64,000 nt of DNA from Pectinatus sp. (GTDB taxonomy: Bacteria > Bacillota > Negativicutes > Selenomonadales > Selenomonadaceae): assembly GCA_020025135.1 (NCBI GenBank), contig JAHHSQ010000001.1, positions 179 through 64,178 of the forward strand. The letters are read 5' to 3'. How positions within the stretch are numbered: the first letter of the stretch is position 1; each line of letters opens with the position of its first letter. Both the position numbers and the translations under genes were made by a program. The notes under the pieces were generated by a model that made no database searches, was not told the DNA's origin, and saw nothing but the letters and a program-made list of their open reading frames with translations. Of the stretch, positions 14,436 through 40,702 are shown one piece after another.

Positions 14436-15990
14436 TGGCGACGAAGAGGGAAGATAATAAAAAGAAATTTTGGAAAAATGACCGCGAGACTTTGCTGGTG
14501 CTAATGTATGTTTTTATTGATAAAAGCAATTAAATTATTGCCGAAAATAGTAAGTATATAGAGCAATTTATATATCAAAGGGTAAAATCCACCTGAATTG
14601 CTGGAAACTCTTAAAGCTAATCGGACTGAAGCACGGTTTTGAAAGAGAAATTGTTTGACAGTAACGAAAGTAGAAAAAATCGATTAGATGGTAGATGGTT
14701 AAATCCTAAGTACTATAAATAGACAATCAGCAGCCAAACTTCTAAGAGAAGGAGGTTCAACGACTATCTAGAGTAGGTCCGAGTGGGCCGAAGTGGGTGG
14801 CTCTTCTGATACAGAAGATGAAGATATAGTCTGTGCTCATGGGAAATCATGAGAAGTTTATTAGAACTACACTAAATTAACGCCTTGGTGTGAACATATT
14901 TTGCAGTGCTATTGGCTCTTTGAACATATTTAGCTCCAGCTTTGTCACCGCTGATTTAGATTTTCATAATCCGTATTACTTTCTCATTCGGCATTTTATC
15001 GTCGTATTGATTGGTACGATTGGTTTTTTTGTCGGCAAGAGGGTTAATTATCAGATTTGGCGCGATAAGATTGTATATATATATTTCTTGACATTGTTGC
15101 TCCTTTTGTTGGTAGTAGTACACGGCGTTACTATCAATGGAGCGAAGCGCTGGATAAATTTGATTTGGTTTCAGTTACAACCATCAGAGTTGGTAAAGAT
15201 AGTGGGAGTTATTCTTACGAGTAGTTATATCAGTGCTTGCGCTAAGATGCACCGGGACATTTCACTTTTTAATAAAAACATTGTTGCGGTCGGTGTTTTA
15301 GCATTGCTGGTTTTAGAACAACCGGATTTGGGTACTAGTATGATTATTATTGGTGTTCCAATTATCATGTATATTGTGGCTGGTATCGACCAAAAGACGA
15401 TAACGATTTTATTAATTGGAACGCTATTAGCACTGGTTTTGCTTGTTTGGGCGAAACCATATCGCTGGGACAGAATTATGATTTGGTATGACCCGTGGGC
15501 TAGGGCGCAGGGAGATGGTTATCAAACGGTACAGTCCATAATTGCCATCGGTTCAGGCGGTTTTTGGGGCATGGGTATCGGTAAAGGGGTGGCTAAATAT
15601 GCCTATTTACCAGAGGCTCATACCGATTTTGCTTTTGCAATTTTCTCACAGGAAATGGGTATGATTGGCGTCGTTTGTATTTTTATCTTGTACATGATAT
15701 TTTACTTTTATGCTTGGCGCGTGGCGATAAAAGCTAGGGATGTTTATGGTCGGTTACTCGGTTTTGGCATAGTTGCTTTGTTAGTTAGCCAAACCTTAAT
15801 CAATTTGGCAATGGTCATAGGATTGTTGCCGGTAGTCGGAGTGCCATTACCATTTATCAGTTATGGGGGGACAGCATTGCTTGTAAATATGTTTATGCTA
15901 GGCATTTTACAGAATATTAGCTTGGTCACAGATAAATATCCTTTGAAATTAGTGCCTAAAGAGGGAAAAACATTCGGCCGTAGTGGATGA
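14432..15990 (+). CDS. FtsW/RodA/SpoVE-family (SEDS) protein, split by one group I intron
   Basis: join(14432..14517,14907..15990). Exon 1 encodes M(M)ATKREDNKKKFWKNDRETLLVLMYVF plus 2 nt. The spliced junction ...LLVLMYVF(I)AIGSLNIFSSSFV reconstitutes TM1 with the same spacing I recall for B. subtilis SpoVE (LLLVIITLLLLTIGLIMVYSASAV). Exon 2 carries the rest of the SEDS fold (QPSELVK, PDLGT, LPEAHTDFAF, PFISYGG). Confidence 0.8.
14518..14906 (+). ncRNA. Group I intron (subgroup IA-like, ORF-less), copy A in the ftsW-like gene
   Basis: 5' exon ends gtttttat|. Guide sequence GTAAG is at 14550-14554, followed by an 8-bp P2 hairpin with a GCAA loop. Core motifs: attgctgg (14597), aatcagcagcc, ggttcaacgactat (14754-14767), gatatagtctg (14823-14833). 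P3 is ccacct/gggtgg. P9 has a GAAA loop. The intron ends ...ttttgcag|. An alternative in-frame 3' splice site lies at 14903. Confidence 0.85.
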
Positions 15991-26075: not shown

Positions 26076-29000
26076 ATGTTTTTAACGAAAATAGCACAGG
26101 ATAAACAGGTACGACAATTAATATGTGGATACAATGATAGAGAGAAGCAATATTTATATGCTTATGGGGTGAACGGTTCTCAAAAACATATACTAGCGGC
26201 CTGTTGTTATCAGGATAATCCACGACCAATGGTCATCATAGTTAAAAACAGAGAAAACCTATTAGAGTGGCAGAGCAATTTGCAGGCACTTTTACCGGAA
26301 GAGGTAGAAGTACAGGTTTTGCCAGCAGTGGATATGGTGGCTTTTTCCACCAGTGCTAAAAGCCTAGAGCTGACTGCCAAACGAATGGAAATATTAGGGA
26401 AATTGGCACAAAATAAGCCAGTTATTGTTTTGACTGAGATAAATTCAGCCATGCAGCGAGATATTTCGGCCCAATCTATCAAGGAAAATAGTCTCTACTT
26501 TGAAAGTGGAGATAAGTTAGACCGCGATGAACTTCTAAAATCACTGGTCAATTTGGGATATGAGCGCACAGAACAGGTAGAACATATGGGACAATTTGCT
26601 CTACGGGGAGGTATCATTGATATTTTCCCTATAAATATGAATTGTCCTGTGCGTTTGGAATTTTTTGATGATACCTTGGAATCACTGCGTTCTTTTAGCG
26701 TGGAATCACAGCGCTCAGAGGCCAAATTGACGACGTTCTTTGTCATGCCATTGTTGTTGCTCAATGAGAAGGACGAAAAGGAAAGCTTTCTTTCTTATTT
26801 ATCAGTAGATGGAATAGTGCTATTAGATGAGCCAGTTCACCTAGAAGAGGAAGCTAAAGTAGTGCTCAAGGAAAATGAGGAGATAGCAACAGAATTTTTC
26901 GATTGGGTGGAGTTGTACGAAAAGCTCTGTTCGCATAAATTACTGTTTTTTTCGGCTATCTTGCAGAAACAAAAAGCTATTACACCAGATGTTGCGGTAA
27001 ATATGCTCGTCAAAAAAGTAACTCCTTTTCAACGGCAAATAAATTTATTTGTCTCTGAATTACAGGAAAAATTGCTCCTCGGCGAAGAAATAATCATTTG
27101 TATGGATGATGCTGGCAAGGTGCAATACGTTAAAGAAATATTGCAAAAAAATCATATTTTTGTTAATTTGCCGGCTAATGCTGACAATAGTCAGGGTGTT
27201 GGTGTTCAACTCGTGGTGAATAATTTTTCTGAGGGTATGGAATGGCCTGATTTAAAATTGGTCATTTATACGGAAAAGGATATTATGGGACGCAAAAAAC
27301 GTCATTTGCGTCTTCCCAAGGTAAATAAAAAAAATCGTATCATGCACTTTACCGATATCAATGTCGGTGATTATGTCGTGCATGTGAATTATGGTATCGG
27401 CAAATATTTAGGTATTGAAACAATAGTTTTAGATGGGGTACATCGCGATTATCTCCACATCAAATACAGTGGCAATGATAAACTATTTGTTCCCGTTGAC
27501 CAGGTTAGCTTGTTGCAAAAGTATATCGGCAGTGAGGGAGAAGTTCCCCATCTGAGCAAGATGGATAGTATCACTTGGAATAAGAACAAGGCTAAAGCTA
27601 AGGCGGCGGTGGAAAAGATTGCCAAAGAATTAATTAATCTTTATGCTAAGCGAAAAGCGAATAAAGGCTATGCCTTTTCTGAAGATACGCCATGGCAGCG
27701 AGAGTTTGAAGACGCTTTTCCGTACGAAGAAACGGCCGACCAACTGATGGCCATTAAAGACATCAAGAGCGATATGGAAAAACCGGTCGCTATGGATAGA
27801 CTGCTTTGCGGTGATGTCGGTTTTGGCAAGACTGAGGTGGCCATCCGAGCCGCCTTTAAGGCTACTATGGATGGCAAGCAGGTAGCTGTTTTAGTACCGA
27901 CCACTGTTTTGGCAGAGCAACATTATCAGACCTTTAAGCACCGTCTAGAAAATTTTGCCCCCACCTTAGATGTCATCTGCCGTTTTCGTTCCTTGAAGGA
28001 ACAGCGTGCAATTATCGAAAAAGTTGCCACTGGACAGATAGATATTCTGATTGGAACACATGCCATTTTAAATGAAAAAAAAGTTAAATTTGCCAATTTG
28101 GGCCTTTTAATTGTTGATGAAGAACAGCGCTTTGGTGTCAAGCAAAAGGAAAAAATTAAGCAAATCAGTGAGAATTTGGATGTTTTGACTTTGAGTGCTA
28201 CCCCTATTCCACGCACTTTGCACATGTCTTTAGCAGGAACGCGTGATATGAGCATCATAGAGACACCACCTAAGGATAGATTTCCCATTCAGACATATGT
28301 CGTCGAAGATAACGACACCATTTTGCGTAATGCCATCTTGCGTGAAATTAAGCGAGGTGGGCAGGTTTACTTTATCTACAATCGGGTAGAAACGATAGAT
28401 AAAATGTACTTGCGATTGTCGGCATTATTGCCAGAAGCTAATATCAAGATAGCGCATGGTCAGATGTCGGAGGCTTTGTTAGAAAAGGCGATGGTGGAAT
28501 TTTATGAGGGTAAATACAATGTCCTTTTAGCTACTAGTATTGTGGAAAATGGTTTGGATATCGCCAATGCCAATACCATAATAATTTATGATGCTGATAT
28601 GTTTGGCTTGTCTCAACTCTACCAAATGCGCGGTCGGGTGGGGCGTTCTAAGAAAATTGCCTATGCTTATTTTGTCTACAAGAAGGACAAGGTTTTGACC
28701 GAAATGGCAGAAAAACGCTTACAGGCGATTAAAGATTTTGCCGAATTGGGGTCTGGATTTAAAATTGCGATGCGCGACCTAGAAATTAGGGGGGCCGGAA
28801 ATTTATTAGGAGCTCAACAGCATGGACATATTGCTAATGTCGGTTTTGAAATGTACTGTCATTTATTGGAAGAGGCAATAAACGAGTTACAAACTGGTAA
28901 GAAAAAATTAGAAGTGCCAGAGCCAGTTCTTACGCTACAGGTAGATGCCTATATAGACGGCGAATATATCAATGATGCCATGCACAAAATAGAAGTGTAT

Positions 29001-29378
29001 CAGCGCATTGTGGCAATAAAGACTGAGGCACAATTGACAGAATTAAAATCGGAATTGATAGATAGATTTGGTCCTTTATCGCCTTATGTAGATAATTTGC
29101 TCCGCATAGCAGCTATTAAAAATAAAGCGCGGTCTTTAGGTGTAAAATCTGTGGTGGAACAAGGGCTGGATTTGCAGATTAATTTATTGCCAGAACACCG
29201 TGTCGATGCCTCGGCATTGTTCTTATTAAAGAGCAAGTGGAAGAAGATGGTGACCTTGTTGCCAGCTAGCAATGCTCTGCGCTTGCATCTTACAGCGAGA
29301 ACAGATATCTTGTCAGTTTTAGATGATGCATTGCTCTTTTTATGGGAAAAATCGAAGAAGGAAAGGATGAAAAAGTGA
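26076..29378 (+). CDS. mfd: Transcription-repair coupling factor
   Basis: 1100 aa. Contains a CarD-like RID (GDYVVHVNYGIGKY), superfamily 2 helicase motifs (GDVGFGKTEVA, DEEQRFGV, SATPIPRT) and a TRCF domain. Confidence 0.95.
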   Translation: MFLTKIAQDKQVRQLICGYNDREKQYLYAYGVNGSQKHILAACCYQDNPRPMVIIVKNRENLLEWQSNLQALLPEEVEVQVLPAVDMVAFSTSAKSLELTAKRMEILGKLAQNKPVIVLTEINSAMQRDISAQSIKENSLYFESGDKLDRDELLKSLVNLGYERTEQVEHMGQFALRGGIIDIFPINMNCPVRLEFFDDTLESLRSFSVESQRSEAKLTTFFVMPLLLLNEKDEKESFLSYLSVDGIVLLDEPVHLEEEAKVVLKENEEIATEFFDWVELYEKLCSHKLLFFSAILQKQKAITPDVAVNMLVKKVTPFQRQINLFVSELQEKLLLGEEIIICMDDAGKVQYVKEILQKNHIFVNLPANADNSQGVGVQLVVNNFSEGMEWPDLKLVIYTEKDIMGRKKRHLRLPKVNKKNRIMHFTDINVGDYVVHVNYGIGKYLGIETIVLDGVHRDYLHIKYSGNDKLFVPVDQVSLLQKYIGSEGEVPHLSKMDSITWNKNKAKAKAAVEKIAKELINLYAKRKANKGYAFSEDTPWQREFEDAFPYEETADQLMAIKDIKSDMEKPVAMDRLLCGDVGFGKTEVAIRAAFKATMDGKQVAVLVPTTVLAEQHYQTFKHRLENFAPTLDVICRFRSLKEQRAIIEKVATGQIDILIGTHAILNEKKVKFANLGLLIVDEEQRFGVKQKEKIKQISENLDVLTLSATPIPRTLHMSLAGTRDMSIIETPPKDRFPIQTYVVEDNDTILRNAILREIKRGGQVYFIYNRVETIDKMYLRLSALLPEANIKIAHGQMSEALLEKAMVEFYEGKYNVLLATSIVENGLDIANANTIIIYDADMFGLSQLYQMRGRVGRSKKIAYAYFVYKKDKVLTEMAEKRLQAIKDFAELGSGFKIAMRDLEIRGAGNLLGAQQHGHIANVGFEMYCHLLEEAINELQTGKKKLEVPEPVLTLQVDAYIDGEYINDAMHKIEVYQRIVAIKTEAQLTELKSELIDRFGPLSPYVDNLLRIAAIKNKARSLGVKSVVEQGLDLQINLLPEHRVDASALFLLKSKWKKMVTLLPASNALRLHLTARTDILSVLDDALLFLWEKSKKERMKK

Positions 29379-32035
29379 TGGGTAATATACAAGTGGTTGG
29401 TCTTGGGCCAGCTGGAGAAAAGTTTATTAATCTGCATACTTGGCATATTTTAAACGATGCTGAACAAATATGCTTGCGGACCAAAATGCATCCAGCTGTA
29501 GAAGCCTTGGAAAAGAAAAATATAAATTTTATCAATTATCGGTAAGTTCAACGGGAAACCGCTGAATAGAGGTTATTATACCCAACTAAGAAATTGAATT
29601 GCTGAAAAGTCGTAAAGCCGATTAAACTAAAACATAATTTTGAAAAAGAAATAGGTGTGAAGGTGCTGAAAGGAGAAAAAATTAATCGGATAATATCTGG
29701 TGTGAATCGGGATATAAAAAATCGAAAATCAGCAGCCAAGCTCCAAAGAGGAGCAGGTTCAACGACTATTCCTCGTGAGGGAAGTAGGTATAAGCGTATC
29801 GAAGTGATTTCGCCCTAACAGGAGATGCTGAGGGAGAAGAGATAGTCTGTGCTTGTCGGAAACGACAAGGTGTCTATTATTGAGACCGCATAGATTTAGC
29901 GAAGCTATGTGAACACCACAGAAGTTATGATGATTTTTATCAAAATGGTTTATCTTTTGACGATGTCTACGAAAGAATTGTCACTGATTTATTAGTTAGG
30001 GCTAGCGTTAAAGATGTCGTATATGTAGTTCCAGGCAGTCCTATGGTTGCCGAAAGAACAGTGCCTATGTTATTAAAGCGGGCTGCTAGCGAGAATATTA
30101 AAGTAGAAGTAGTTCCAGCGATGAGTTTTTTGGAATTACTCTATGTAACTCTTCAAGTAGACCCAATTCAAGGTCTTTTAATTACAGATGCCTTTGCCTT
30201 ACAGGAAAAAGTATTGGATTTTTCTTTTGGCACAGTGATAACGCAATTATACGACAAGCATATGGCTTCAGAAGTTAAATTGACTCTGATGGATTATTTG
30301 CCAGATGATTATGAAGTGAGTGTTGTCTATCATCTAGGTATGTCAGATGAAAAGGTGACAAGCTTGCCACTTTATGAATTGGATAGAATTGAGAAGATAG
30401 ACTATTTGACGAGTTTATATGTCAAACCATATCAACAGGAAACGCAAACTTTTTCCATTAATCCATTGGTAGAAATTGTCAAAACTTTGCGTTCTCCAGG
30501 TGGATGTCCTTGGGATATACTGCAAACACATCGCTCTTTGAGAAATAATCTCATCGAAGAAACTTATTGATATTTGGTAAGCGTATCGAGAAATCGGTAT
30601 GAAAAATAAGAAATCGAAATGCTGGAACACCGCAAAGCTGATTAAACCACAACATAATCTCGAAAGATTTAGGTGTGAAGGTAGCGAAAGCAGAAAAAAT
30701 TAATCAGATGGTAGATGGCGTAAGCCTAAAATACCGTAAACCGGCAATCAGCAGCCAAGCTCTAAAAGGAGAAGGTTCAACGACTATTCCCCTAAAAGGA
30801 AGTAGGTGCGAGGGTACCGAAGTGGTTTCATCCCACAGGTAGAGCTGAGGGAAAAGAGATAGTCTGTGCTTTTGGGAAACTAAGAGAGGTTCTCTTTGAG
30901 AACTGTTTCAATTTAGCGAATTGAAATGAACAGCTTTATTAAAGTCAGGAAGTATTAGAAGCGATAGATAAAGAAGATGCGAATTTACTGTGTGAAGAAC
31001 TAGGCGATTTATTATTACAGATAGTTTTTCATGCTCGCATGGCAGAAGAAAGTAAATTGTTTTCTATGCAAGAAGTAATAGAGGGCATTACAAATAAATT
31101 GGTTTATAGGCATCCACATGTCTTTGGTGATGTTTCCGTGCGCGATGCGGGAGAAGTGCTTTTGAATTGGGAAAAATTAAAGCGAGCGGAGAAGAAGGAT
31201 AGAAAATACCTTTTAGATGGAATACCAAAAGATTTACCCGCTCTTTTAACGGCGGATAAACTGCAGTCTAAAGCAGCAAAGGTCGGCTTTGATTTTGCCA
31301 ATGTAGAAGCTGCTAAAGATAAAATATTAGAAGAATTACAAGAAACCCTAGAAGCTATTAAATTAGGAGAAGAGGAAAAAATAGAGGAAGAAATGGGCGA
31401 TTTGCTCTTTTCTGTCGTCAATTTCGCTCGTTTAAAGCACATAAATCCAGAAATTGCCTTATTAAAAAGCGATGCTGTTCGTTACTTGGACAGCTAGTGC
31501 GATTTATAGTAAGCATATCGGGAAACTGGTATGTGGCGTTTAGGAGCCGGCACAAAGAAATTGAATTGCTGGAAAGATGTAAAGCTAATTAAACCACAAC
31601 GCAATATTGAAGAAGTGTAGGCGTGACGGTGGCGAAAGCAGAAAAAATTAATTAGATGGTATATGGTTAAAACCTAAGTGCTAGAAAATTGTCAATCAGC
31701 AGCCAAGCTCTGAAGAGGAGCAGGTTCAACGACTATTTCCCGATGGGAAAGTAGGTACAAGCGTACTGAAGTTGTTTCGCCCTAACGGATAATGCCGAGG
31801 GAAAAGAGATAGTCTATGCTCACATGAAAGTGCGAGAAGTTTGTAAAAACTGTATTAAACTAGCGATTTAATACGAATAAAAACCGATATGGTAACAGTA
31901 GAAGCAAATAAAAAATTTCGCAAACGCTTTACCTTTATTGAAAGAGAATTAAAAAAATCTCAAATTGAGTGGTCCAAAGCGAATGCAGAAATGTTAGAGG
32001 ATTTATGGCAAAAGGCTAAACGAATGGAAGGATAA
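29378..32035 (+). CDS. yabN: YabN-type fusion protein (tetrapyrrole-methylase-like domain plus MazG NTP pyrophosphohydrolase domain), split by three group I introns
   Basis: join(29378..29532,29922..30567,30949..31462,31899..32035). Junctions: EKKNINF(I)SYDDFYQ; SLRNNLIEETY|EVLEAIDKEDANLLCEELGD (compare B. subtilis YabN ..MIEECYELLEAIDEED..); NPEIAL(L)EANKKFRKRFTFIE (compare ..EPEEALTMTNDKFRRRFSYIE..). These align without gaps to YabN as I recall it. The ATG overlaps the mfd stop (gTGATG). Confidence 0.85.
29533..29921 (+). ncRNA. Group I intron, copy C1 (yabN intron 1)
   Basis: 5' exon ends aattttat|. GTAAG at 29542-29546, and its TAA is the in-frame stop. P2 is ttcaacgg-GAAA-ccgctgaa. P3 is gaaat/atttc. 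P5a is ccgatta/taatcgg. P9 is cttgtcg-GAAA-cgacaag. The intron ends ...caccacag|. Confidence 0.85.
30568..30948 (+). ncRNA. Group I intron, copy C2 (yabN intron 2)
   Basis: 5' exon ends aaacttat|, then an immediate TGA. GTAAG at 30577-30581 pairs with cttat (U.G at the splice site). P2 is cgtatcga-GAAA-tcggtatg. P5a is ctgatta/taatcag. An in-frame TAA 9 nt upstream of exon 3 forces the 3' splice site to ...aaagtcag| (30948). Confidence 0.9.
31463..31898 (+). ncRNA. Group I intron, copy C3 (yabN intron 3)
   Basis: 5' exon ends attgccttat|. The P1 loop is 46 nt. GTAAG at 31509-31513. P2 is catatcgg-GAAA-ctggtatg. P5a is ctaatta/taattag. P7.2 is ggtac-aagc-gtact. The intron ends ...ggtaacag|. 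Confidence 0.85.
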
Positions 32036-32739: not shown

Positions 32740-34351
32740 TTGTTAAACGTAGTTATAACAGGTGGAACCAGTGGCATAGGTTTGGCTACTGCAAAATTGT
32801 ATTTAGAAAAGGGAGCAAATGTCTATGCTGTGGCGCGTGATGTCGGGAAATATCAAGATATTCAGGCAGAATTACACGCAGAAAATTATCATTTTGTGCA
32901 GGCTGATATAAGAAATGTAGTTGATTGTCAGCGCGCTTGTATGGAAATTGCTAACAAAGGCAAAGTGATAGATATATTGGTCAATTCAGCAGGCGTTTAT
33001 GGCGAACGGGCCATTGGTGATACTGACGAAGAATTTTTTCAAACTATTTTGGATACTAATATAAAAGGCATGTATTTTATTAAATCGCCTGTGGCGAAAT
33101 GGTAAGCCTGTCGAGAAATTGGCAGAGCATGAAAAAGGAAATTGAATTGCTGGAATACCGTAAAGCCATTTGTACCACAACACAATCTCGGAAGAGATAG
33201 ATGTGAAGGTGACGAAAGTAGAAAAAAACAAATTGGATGATGCAAGGTTAAATCCTAAACATTTTGAAATCGGCAATCAGCAGCCAAGCTCTAAAAGGAG
33301 CAGGTTCAACGACTATTTCCTCAAAGGGAAGTAGACGCAAGCGCGTCGAAGCGGTTTCGCCCTAACAGATAATGCTGAGGGAAATGAGATAGTCTGTACT
33401 CATGAGAAAGCATGAGAAGTTCATCGGAGAACTGCATGGAAGTAGCGATTTCATGTGAAAAATAATAATTAGGTGTAAGTATGCATTGCCTTTACTAAAA
33501 AAGGGGCGCAATAAGGCGATTGTCAATATTTCTTCCGATGCCGGAATAAATGGCAATTATTTTTGTACGGCATATTGCGCTAGCAAGGGAGCGGTAACGG
33601 TTTTTACGAAGGCGCTTTCTTTAGAGTTGGCCCTAGATAAGATAAGAGTGAATTGTCTTTGCCCTGGTGATATCCGTACGCCCATGACAGAAGAGCAGTG
33701 GACAGACGATAACAGCGAGGCTGAGATGAGCTCTTTTTATCCCTTGGGGCGCATTGGAACAGCGGAGGAAGTGGCTAATGCCATTTATTTTTTAGCTTCA
33801 GAAAAAGCCAGCTTTATTAAAAATTATTGCCACGTCGTTTCTTAAAATCTAGAGAGAGAAGCGGTTAATTCAAAGAGGCAATTAATCTGTTTAGTAAGCA
33901 TATTGGGTAACTAGTGTGCATAGTATGTAATTTTACATATAATAAAGAAATTGAATTGCTGGAAAGGCGTAAAGCTGATTAAACTACAACGTGATGGTGA
34001 AATAAACATGGACGTGAAGGTAGCGAAAGCAAAAAAAATTAATCAGATGACATACGGTTAAATCCTAAGTGTCAGTTTATCGCTAATCAGCAGCGAAGCC
34101 CTGAAAAAGGGAACGTTCAACGACTATTCCTCCTGAGGGAAGTAGGCTAGAAGCGATAGCTAGCCGAAGTGATTTCGCCCAAACGGACAATGCCGTGGGA
34201 AAAGAGATAGTCTGTGCTCGTGAAAAATCACGAGGTGTTCGAAATAGAACAGCGGAATAGTAGCGCATTTCCGTGAACAAATTCTCCAGATGGGAGAGTC
34301 AGAACTGGCAGTGTAATCAGTATAGATGGTGGATTGACAGCTCATTCTTAA
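32740..34351 (+). CDS. Short-chain dehydrogenase/reductase (SDR), split by two group I introns
   Basis: join(32740..33080,33473..33817,34303..34351). Has TGGTSGIG, NSAG, and Y..ASK (YCASKGA). Junctions: TNIKGMYF(M)CKYALPLLKKGRNKAIVNISS and LASEKASF(I)TGSVISIDGGLTAHS. Both reproduce standard SDR spacing. Confidence 0.8.
33081..33472 (+). ncRNA. Group I intron, copy D1 (SDR intron 1)
   Basis: 5' exon ends gtattttat|. GTAAG at 33102-33106, and its TAA is in frame. P2 is ctgtcga-GAAA-ttggcag. P3 is ggaaat/gtttc. P7.2 is gacgc-aagc-gcgtc. The 3' end is ...ataattag| (33472). This is TAG rather than CAG, chosen from SDR spacing. Confidence 0.8.
33818..34302 (+). ncRNA. Group I intron, copy D2 (SDR intron 2)
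   Basis: 5' exon ends cagctttat|. The P1 loop is 76 nt and contains its own hairpin (aattattgcc...ggcaattaat). GTAAG at 33894-33898. P2 is gcatattgg-GTAA-ctagtgtgc. P7.2 is enlarged (ggctag...ctagcc). The intron ends ...gagagtcag|. An earlier CAG at 34287-34289 would be out of frame. Confidence 0.85.
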
Positions 34352-39672: not shown

Positions 39673-40702
39673 ATGAGAAGCTTACCGCGTCCTCAATTAT
39701 TAGTAGATGGATATAATGTTATTAATTGTTGGCCGGGTCTTTTAGATAGAGATTTAGAATATTCCAGAGATAAACTCATTCACATCCTGCGGGAATATGG
39801 AGCATATGAAAATTATGATATTACGATTGTTTTTGATTGAAATTATCGTATGAGAATATACATGCGGTAATAATTCCAGTCAGTATGTTTAGAGATAAGC
39901 ATATAAAGATTGCTGATAAAGGCATCAACACTGTTTTAACTGCTGGAAACCCCTAAAGGTATTTGAACCACAACATAAACATGCAAAAAGGTTAAATGTG
40001 AAGGTGACGAAAGTAGAAAAAATCAGATACATGGCATATGGTTAAATCCTAAGTGCTTGAAATGGGTAATCAGCAACTAAGCTCTGAATAGGAGAAAGCT
40101 CAACGACTATTCCTCTTGAGGGAAGTACCTGACAAGCGATAGGTTAGGGATATGGACAGGCCTGAACAGATTAGGTTGCAGGATAAGATATAGTCTGTGC
40201 TCAATGGAAACACTGAGATGTTCCAGAGGGAACTGCATGGGTATAGCGAGCTGATGTGAACAGAATTATCGTTGTACAGAGTAGAAATGGAAATATAAAT
40301 ATCTGATACGCACTCTGTTGGTTATTTTAACGAGAAATACAGGCTTTATACACGAAATCTTGTCGTAGTACGGAATATCATGATAAACATTTTGCGATAA
40401 TTTATACCAAAGAAAAAGAAACGGCAGACAGTTATATTGAACGTTTGGCATACTATTTTTCTCATGAAGGAAAAGAAGTTTTTGTCGTCACTTCGGACGG
40501 AGCAGAACAAAATACTATTTTGGGAGCTGGCGCTTATCGCATCACAGTGAGGGAATTACAAATGGCAGTAAAAAATGCCAAAAAAAAGATGCGCAAGCAA
40601 TACATTCACAAGGTATCTGTTCCGAAGGGAAGAAATGAATTGGCGGATTATTTACAGGCTGATGTTTTGGAAAAATTGGAGGAGTTGCGTAAGAAAAAGT
40701 GA
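39673..40702 (+). CDS. yacP: NYN-domain ribonuclease YacP/Rae1, split by one group I intron
   Basis: join(39673..39837,40343..40702). The spliced sequence ...LLVDGYNVINCWP...YENYDITIVFD|ALYTKSCRSTEYHDKHFAIIYTKEKETADSYIERL...VVTSDGAEQ aligns along its length with B. subtilis YacP as I recall it (..VIVVFDAHLVKG...VIFTKENETADERIEKL..VATSDYTEQ). It follows rlmB, as in Bacillus. Confidence 0.8.
39838..40342 (+). ncRNA. Group I intron, copy E (yacP), divergent member with a retargeted guide sequence
   Basis: 5' exon ends gtttttgat|, then an immediate TGA. The guide sequence is GTCAG (39879-39883), complementary to exon ttgat with U.G at the splice site. P2 is tatgttta-GAGA-taagcata. P3 is ctgtt/aacag. 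P5a is gtatttga/tcagatac. Core motifs: actgctgg, aatcagcaac, gctcaacgactat, gatatagtctg. An ~80-nt tail follows P9.2. An in-frame TAA at 40328-40330 forces the 3' splice site to ...aaatacag| (40342). Confidence 0.8.

Follow-up and report, generated by a model that had tools for sequence, protein, structure and literature searches.

The 64,000-nt stretch of the Pectinatus sp. assembly GCA_020025135.1 analysed here (contig JAHHSQ010000001.1; hereafter the window) holds, at 29378-32035, four plus-strand open reading frame (ORF) fragments with three inserts between them. We find that the fragments are the exons of yabN and that the inserts are group I introns. Exon 1 (29378-29532, 155 nt) ends in AATTTTAT. 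Exon 2 (29922-30567, 646 nt) encodes the methylase-like domain and the start of the MazG part, and ends in GAA GAA ACT TAT. Exon 3 (30949-31462, 514 nt) encodes MazG domains and ends in GCC TTA T, while exon 4 (31899-32035) comprises 137 nt with the stop codon counted in. These four lengths had been proposed in a first-pass annotation of the sequence and were borne out: joined, the exons make a 1452-nt frame that encodes 483 amino acids plus a stop.

Searching NCBIfam with the spliced product, we obtained a full-length match to NF052436, the profile of the bifunctional methyltransferase/pyrophosphohydrolase YabN (score 620.4 bits, curated cut-off 525; residues 4-480 span the whole profile, positions 1-486 of 486). 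Pfam placed TP_methylase at residues 5-205, together with two MazG stretches. The closest database relatives, from Pectinatus and other Selenomonadales, are 482-489 aa long and 52-59% identical. The first-pass annotation had suggested an orthologue alignment of the 483-aa product as a check. Performing this alignment with 11 relatives, we found zero gaps at all three junctions. Residues E264, E265, Y267, E268 and V269 around junction 2 are invariant in the 12 aligned sequences, and the four exons, their frames open, keep every residue that is invariant in that alignment.

The gene order mfd-yabN-HU-SDR-recA is common to Pectinatus haikarae and one further relative, in which yabN and the SDR gene are uninterrupted. 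A codon alignment to these two intron-free syntenic loci was gapless at all three yabN junctions. Thus, the earlier claim that the join across intron 3 is collinear with homologues holds against the 11 relatives and the intron-free loci alike. The empty site of P. haikarae at junction 1 reads AGC TTT ATC, the insertion point lying before the last C; i.e., the target pentamer is already there. Upstream, the yabN ATG overlaps the mfd stop TGA by one base (29376-29380), so the pair probably shares one transcript and is coupled in translation, which would place intron 1 in a polycistronic RNA.

The introns break the gene call. The public protein collection has four proteins (67, 175, 152 and 48 aa) in place of one YabN, and the TP_methylase and MazG matches fall on different stored "genes". 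The first-pass annotation had foreseen such automated mis-calling, pointing to the 46-nt P1 loop of intron 3 that is read as coding; we likewise find that read-through into this loop gives an LKSDAVRYLDS tail ahead of a stop.

Two observations on YabN relatives were made in passing. In P0001, an NCBI-derived relative of 532 aa on a 17,214-nt contig, 47 aa (GGCPWD...LLMQ) are repeated exactly and in tandem immediately before the junction 2 position; the duplication may be an assembly artefact or real. A scan of metagenome contigs for YabN returned only relatives of at most 47% identity, which were uninformative on introns.

Three group I introns within yabN

Intron 1 occupies 29533-29921 (389 nt), intron 2 30568-30948 (381 nt), and intron 3 31463-31898 (436 nt), all on the plus strand. 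They interrupt the frame in phases 2, 0 and 1, respectively, reproducing the phases first annotated. Searched with the Rfam group I model RF00028 (gathering cut-off 50 bits), they scored 57.0, 58.2 and 68.5 bits (E-values between 8e-12 and 3e-15), each over the full model (1-253). Neither the P1 loop nor a 3' module is covered by the Rfam matches; the lengths given above are the true ones. A group II intron or an intein is ruled out by the RF00028 match, by stops in every frame, and by the absence of an ORF; a homing-endonuclease intron is ruled out on the last ground.

The three introns belong to a larger family: RF00028 matches 11 group I introns across the window, which lie in five protein genes and without exception on the plus strand. 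We aligned these 11 copies with 24 relatives from other genomes and two true IStrons, i.e., transposon-ribozyme fusions. The RNAalifold consensus of the 37 sequences has 85 pairs, 68 of them with compensatory double changes. It comprises helices P2, P3, P4, P5 with an extension, P6, P6a, P7.1, P7.2, P8, P9, P9.1 and P9.2, and the presence of P7.1 and P7.2 assigns the introns to subgroup IA. In the 11 window copies alone, double changes occur at 59 of the 85 pairs and 96% of the cells are paired, compared with 36-41% in a control where the partners were slid by 1-3 columns. The three yabN copies by themselves, 70-74% identical in pairwise comparison, show 22 pairs with compensatory double changes; introns 1, 2 and 3 keep 81, 79 and 83 consensus pairs, respectively. 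The strands of P7, the predicted guanosine-binding helix, are ACGACUAU and AUAGUCU in all three yabN introns; they are near-invariant in the family and hence show no covariation. By covariance model and family covariation, the yabN inserts are bona fide group I introns.

We set the splice sites by P1 pairing, reading frame and homology; an enumeration of all sites that leave an open frame gave too many solutions. In each of the 11 copies, P1 can form between the five exon bases that precede the intron and an internal guide. In 10 of them the pair is YTTAT with GTAAG (GTAAA in one). The copy in yacP has TTGAT with GTCAG, a compensatory change pair relative to the other window copies. In relatives from other phyla, TTGAT goes with GTCAG, GTCAA or GTTAG. 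The yabN targets are TTTAT, CTTAT and CTTAT for introns 1, 2 and 3, and each of the three P1 helices has U.G at the 5' splice site. Every window intron ends in G, and eight of the 11 end in CAG. Within yabN, only intron 2 has a TCAG end, introns 1 and 3 ending in ACAG.

The 3' splice positions of yabN are fixed by the reading frame and the orthologue alignment. At intron 2, the junction had been claimed from the letters themselves and stands as described: exon 2 ends in TAT followed by TGA, and an in-frame TAA (30940-30942) lies 9 nt before GAA GTA TTA GAA. Since the intron is in phase 0, only one G-terminated 3' site is possible, at 30948.

Mapping the structure onto the three introns, we located the guide GTAAG at 29542-29546, 30577-30581 and 31509-31513. 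Intron 1 has a 9-nt P1 loop, P7 strands at 29762-29769 and 29842-29848, a P9.2 loop TAGCGA at 29897-29902, GTGAAC at 29909, and a CACAG end. Intron 2 starts with the in-frame TGA, has its P7 strands at 30780-30787 and 30859-30865 and its P9.2 loop at 30914-30919, and ends in GTCAG. In intron 3, the long P1 loop contains a hairpin; the P7 strands lie at 31729-31736 and 31809-31815, the P9.2 loop at 31861-31866, and the end is AACAG. The P1 loops of the three thus range over 9-46 nt and the tails over 7-20 nt. Subterminal left- and right-end hairpins, of the kind that TnpA recognises in non-autonomous (PATE-like) IS200/IS605 elements, are not recognisable in intron 1, and introns 2 and 3 have short hairpins only.

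The first in-frame stop follows the 5' splice site by 4, 0 and 11 codons in yabN introns 1, 2 and 3, and by 0-19 codons in each intron of the window. An early in-frame stop has been taken as an aid to ribozyme folding in translated RNA (PMC3984707). No ORF is conserved across the yabN introns, a homing endonuclease included. Two GTG-started ORFs, mutually alike, lie inside intron 1 (53 aa, 29657-29818, MKVLKGEKIN...) and intron 2 (55 aa, 30675-30842, MKVAKAEKIN...). In intron 3 a TAG interrupts this frame, which makes them look like side effects of RNA sequence conservation and not like genes.

The intron family and its IStron relatives

Beyond the first-pass annotation, we find that the yabN introns are three of the eleven window copies and that they are kin to IStrons. 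The intron core is ~75% identical to an Enterococcus faecium plasmid element that is followed by the IS200/IS605 gene tnpA, and ~75% identical to a Clostridium botulinum plasmid element that is followed by tnpB. Both IStrons match the family profile end to end, with 255 and 281 bits. Their P9.1, P9.2 (UAGCGA loop) and GUGAAC precede the transposon ORFs, so the transposon part sits exactly where the window copies have their variable tail, which after the GTGAAC module measures 2-81 nt across the 11 copies. The left-end hairpin of the IStrons is located in the P1 loop. In the window copy at 33818-34302, the tail resembles the IStron right-end hairpin and the end is GTCAG. The published rule for group A IStrons is an IA2 intron, insertion after TTGAT, ATTAT or TTTAT, and a TCAG end (PMC4227781), and the target pentamers of the window fit it. 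Judged by their sequences, the window introns are homologous to the intron part of IS200/IS605 IStrons and are without the transposon genes.

Relatives in other genomes come in both forms. Several that we fetched have tnpA/tnpB directly after the intron. Others are ORF-less: those of Ileibacterium, a Pectinatus metagenome-assembled genome (MAG), Selenomonadaceae rumen MAGs, Lachnospiraceae MA2020, Fusobacterium and Epulonipiscium. Some ORF-less relatives in other taxa retain clear IS605-like end hairpins, and the yabN copies are more reduced at their ends than these. Truncated family members whose downstream sequence was checked for transposon genes turned out to be other subfamilies, without the 3' module.

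Among the matches listed (L061, L091, L023, L068, L036, L042, L066, L088, L106 and L101), the family occurs with its 3' module at 70-81% identity in Erysipelotrichaceae, Selenomonadaceae, Synergistales and Fusobacterium, and also in Epulonipiscium, Lachnospiraceae and Enterococcus. Identity across taxa is about that within the window, which argues for horizontal spread.

Elsewhere, we noticed arrays in which 6-12 group I introns follow one another head to tail (RF00028 matches of 53-106 bits). They are found in a Lachnospiraceae sheep MAG, a Marinilabiliaceae MAG, a rabbit Clostridia MAG and the isolate Cytobacillus sp. FJAT-54145; the arrays span L003 3082-7282, L017 1927-7604, L055 173-7866 and L073 5317-7414. 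Many of the array introns are set apart by short spacers, measured as 35-133 nt in L073, which might be micro-exons.

Returning to the window, a family nhmmer profile found no copies there beyond the 11 Rfam matches. The copies are 61-81% identical to one another and together make up ~7% of the window. Apart from yabN, one lies in a ftsW/rodA-like gene (14518-14906, plus strand; target GTTTTTAT, end GCAG), whose spliced product covers positions 4-352 of 356 of PF01098. Four lie in an acyltransferase_3 gene (21869-22273, 22336-22746, 22802-23188 and 23290-23673, plus strand; PF01757 positions 6-315 of 326). The exons between these four are 55-101 nt long. The second and the fourth each have two possible in-frame 3' sites, of which one was chosen, and the most similar pair of the window (81%) consists of neighbouring copies in this gene. 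Two copies lie in the SDR gene (33081-33472 and 33818-34302, plus strand), which is intron-free in Pectinatus and whose spliced product covers PF13561 positions 6-236 of 236. The last lies in the yacP (NYN) gene (39838-40342, plus strand; TTGAT with GTCAG; PF05991 positions 1-166 of 166 after splicing). In summary, excising these eight introns by the same rule restores FtsW/RodA-like, acyltransferase, SDR and YacP domains at full length.

Origin of the introns and competing explanations

The above observations are best explained if yabN is one intact gene whose three ORF-less, IStron-derived group IA2 introns are spliced from the mRNA, and we consider this quite probable; the splicing and the mode of spread are what we infer here. 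After transcription, each intron would fold into a group I core of P2-P9 with P7.1/P7.2, the P5 extension, P9.1 and P9.2. The exon end UUUAU or CUUAU would form P1 with the guide GUAAG, leaving the U.G wobble at the cleavage site. Exogenous guanosine would then attack the 5' site, the freed exon would attack just past the terminal G of CAG, and the exons would be ligated. The in-frame stop 0-11 codons into a yabN intron may free the ribosomes ahead of the ribozyme core. The ligated mRNA would yield the 483-aa methylase-like/MazG protein.

The introns would stem from the intron half of an IS200/IS605-type ("group A") IStron lineage. The transposon genes, which in IStrons lie between GUGAAC and the 3' splice site, would have shrunk in yabN to the 7-20 nt tail, and the left-end hairpin region of the P1 loop to 9-46 nt. 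Insertion at the DNA level, 3' of YTTAT and into the lagging-strand template, may have been carried out by TnpA acting in trans. The copies would have diverged since and are probably immobile passengers by now, their splicing competence presumably kept by selection on the host genes.

The strand on which the copies lie bears on this route. GC skew is positive on the plus strand throughout the window (+0.11 to +0.21). Sense YTTAT sites number 113 in plus-strand genes and 115 in minus-strand genes, and all 11 introns are in plus-strand genes (P ~4e-4; ~0.03 when counted per gene, for five genes). IS200/IS605 insertion targets the lagging-strand template (PMC3984707). Having every copy in a leading-strand gene fits such insertion and is not predicted by RNA-level reverse splicing. 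This suggests a replication-strand-biased DNA insertion route.

Several points weigh against an IStron origin with TnpA-mediated spread. The strand bias rests on five genes in one 64-kb window. A tblastn search with IStron TnpA and IStron TnpB found no homologue in the window. The ends of a mobile IS element are expected to be its most conserved part; those of the yabN introns are heterogeneous, and intron 1 has no recognisable left- or right-end hairpin. Moreover, the copies have diverged by 19-39%, so that any transposition must lie far back, and old introns passed on vertically account just as well for what is seen now. Taking the heterogeneous ends, the 61-81% identity and the lack of a transposase in the window together, we read the copies as old IStron-derived introns that are now probably immobile.

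The chief rival holds that these are free-standing group I introns that never bore a transposon. They would have spread by reverse splicing into YUUAU transcripts, reverse transcription and recombination, and IS200/IS605 elements would have joined some of them secondarily. A five-base target that is the complement of the guide and covaries with it is exactly what reverse splicing requires (PMC3984707). The variable ends, the lack of conserved transposon hairpins in several copies, and the lack of a transposase in the window agree with it as well. So do several copies in one gene, as if an excised intron re-entered its own transcript, the 81% pair being adjacent; moreover, independent events of intron-transposon co-option have been reported (bioRxiv 10.1101/2023.11.20.567912). 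However, an RNA route predicts no strand bias, and 11 of 11 copies lie in leading-strand genes despite an equal supply of lagging-strand sense targets. The target pentamers and, in most copies, the CAG/TCAG end also equal the rule of the IS605-type IStrons, and right-end-like hairpins are left in the copy at 33818-34302 and in ORF-less relatives of other taxa. Thus, we regard reverse splicing as an unlikely origin, and IStron descent as the better account.

Still less probable, to the point of being nearly negligible, is that yabN is a dead gene, broken by three non-splicing repeat copies such as decayed ribozymes or MITE-like insertions. Each yabN intron does have 2-6 non-canonical positions in the consensus helices, a point that also counts against our main reading, and YabN is not known to be essential. 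But a dead gene would hardly show four open exons with all invariant residues kept and an end-to-end YabN profile match of 620 bits. Nor would its inserts keep their helices by compensatory changes despite 26-30% divergence among the three, or recur with intact exons in the ftsW/rodA-like gene and three others. An assembly or binning artefact, with repeats misplaced inside a continuous gene, is the least credible of all. The elements are indeed repetitive, and contigs from short reads end within them, as all three Logan contigs that match the locus do. Yet Logan contigs of two sequencing runs reproduce the stretch from exon 2 through intron 2 to exon 3, with the intron ends on either side, at identities to the window of 100% (29827-31722) and 99.8% (29824-30798). 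A further Logan contig is 99.98% identical to 23480-29784, a stretch that takes in mfd, exon 1 and the first part of intron 1, and the whole of intron 2 is contained in the independent Logan contig L111. Each copy also has its own diverged sequence, at 61-81% identity, and hence the copies are not interchangeable. Since independent contigs reproduce the exon-intron arrangement, it is not an assembly artefact.

Known relatives and what the introns mean

The closest known system is that of the group A IStrons, CdISt1 of Clostridioides difficile, EfISt1 of Enterococcus faecium and their relatives (Tourasse et al. 2014, PMC4227781; Zedaveinyte et al. 2023 preprint). The window introns share with them an IA2-type intron homologous over its whole length, including P9.1, P9.2 and GUGAAC. 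They also share the location after TTTAT, CTTAT or TTGAT, the (T)CAG end (CAG in eight of the 11 copies), the sense orientation in ordinary protein genes, and the early stop. Unlike those IStrons, the window copies are without tnpA, tnpB and the guide RNA part, having a 2-81 nt tail instead, and they are 61-81% identical and not nearly identical; in the yabN copies, the end hairpins are absent or decayed. Density differs too: 11 copies in 64 kb and up to four per gene here, against a published maximum of 9-24 IStron copies per C. difficile genome.

Ribozymes without transposon genes, whether descended from IStrons or akin to them, likewise occur in chromosomal genes as BcISt1 variants of emetic Bacillus cereus, and as three free-standing introns and a PATE in C. 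difficile 630. Whereas these ORF-less or stand-alone cases number one to few copies per genome, here three lie in yabN and eleven in five genes. In the literature searched, no multi-intron housekeeping gene is described.

A single gene with three group IA2 introns has a phage precedent; Landthaler and Shub reportedly described one in 1999, orf142 of phage Twort. Introns of Twort-like Staphylococcus phages share with the window family a core of ~76% identity over ~175 nt. However, the phage matches span only the front 40-47% of the query (to ~250-270 of 405), with no shared 3' module detected in them, and orf142 is a phage gene, while yabN is a housekeeping gene of a bacterial chromosome. The dsrA intron of Candidatus Thiomargarita nelsonii (Flood et al. 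2016, PMC4853749) is another likeness. This IA2 intron interrupts a gene of core metabolism, on a bacterial chromosome with many mobile elements, and has been discussed as IStron-like. It differs in that it is the only intron of its gene, comes from another phylum and contains a MITE in P9, and no family-wide target rule was reported for it.

The kind of element is known, and its density and multiplicity are unusual. In the literature searched, which is incomplete, there is no report of a group I intron density like 11 in 64 kb or of 3-4 introns per housekeeping gene; this is absence of evidence only. According to the review literature, tRNA and rRNA genes are the usual home of bacterial group I introns, and chromosomal protein genes seldom carry them because coupled translation disturbs ribozyme folding (PMC3984707). 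The present locus contradicts this usual picture, with three introns in yabN, four in a neighbouring gene and eleven over five genes, the exons being intact and the ribozyme structure preserved through compensatory change.

Such introns silently break gene calls and short-read assemblies, which affects completeness estimates and the annotation of gut and rumen metagenome genomes. It is conceivable, although we put it somewhat short of an even chance, that this uncultured relative of Pectinatus is intron-rich, its ordinary leading-strand genes colonised genome-wide by ORF-less, transposon-derived group I introns (~1 intron per 6 kb, up to four per gene), and that the family, along with denser arrays, has gone unnoticed in many gut and rumen genomes, fragmenting gene calls there. 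If the density does hold genome-wide, the organism would offer a model of a transposon-ribozyme fusion that filled a genome with introns and then lost its transposon half. It would also make it possible to study splicing of bacterial mRNAs with several introns while they are being translated. Such an intron load, if real, would parallel in a prokaryote the intron loads of organelles or the transposon-derived "introners" of eukaryotes.

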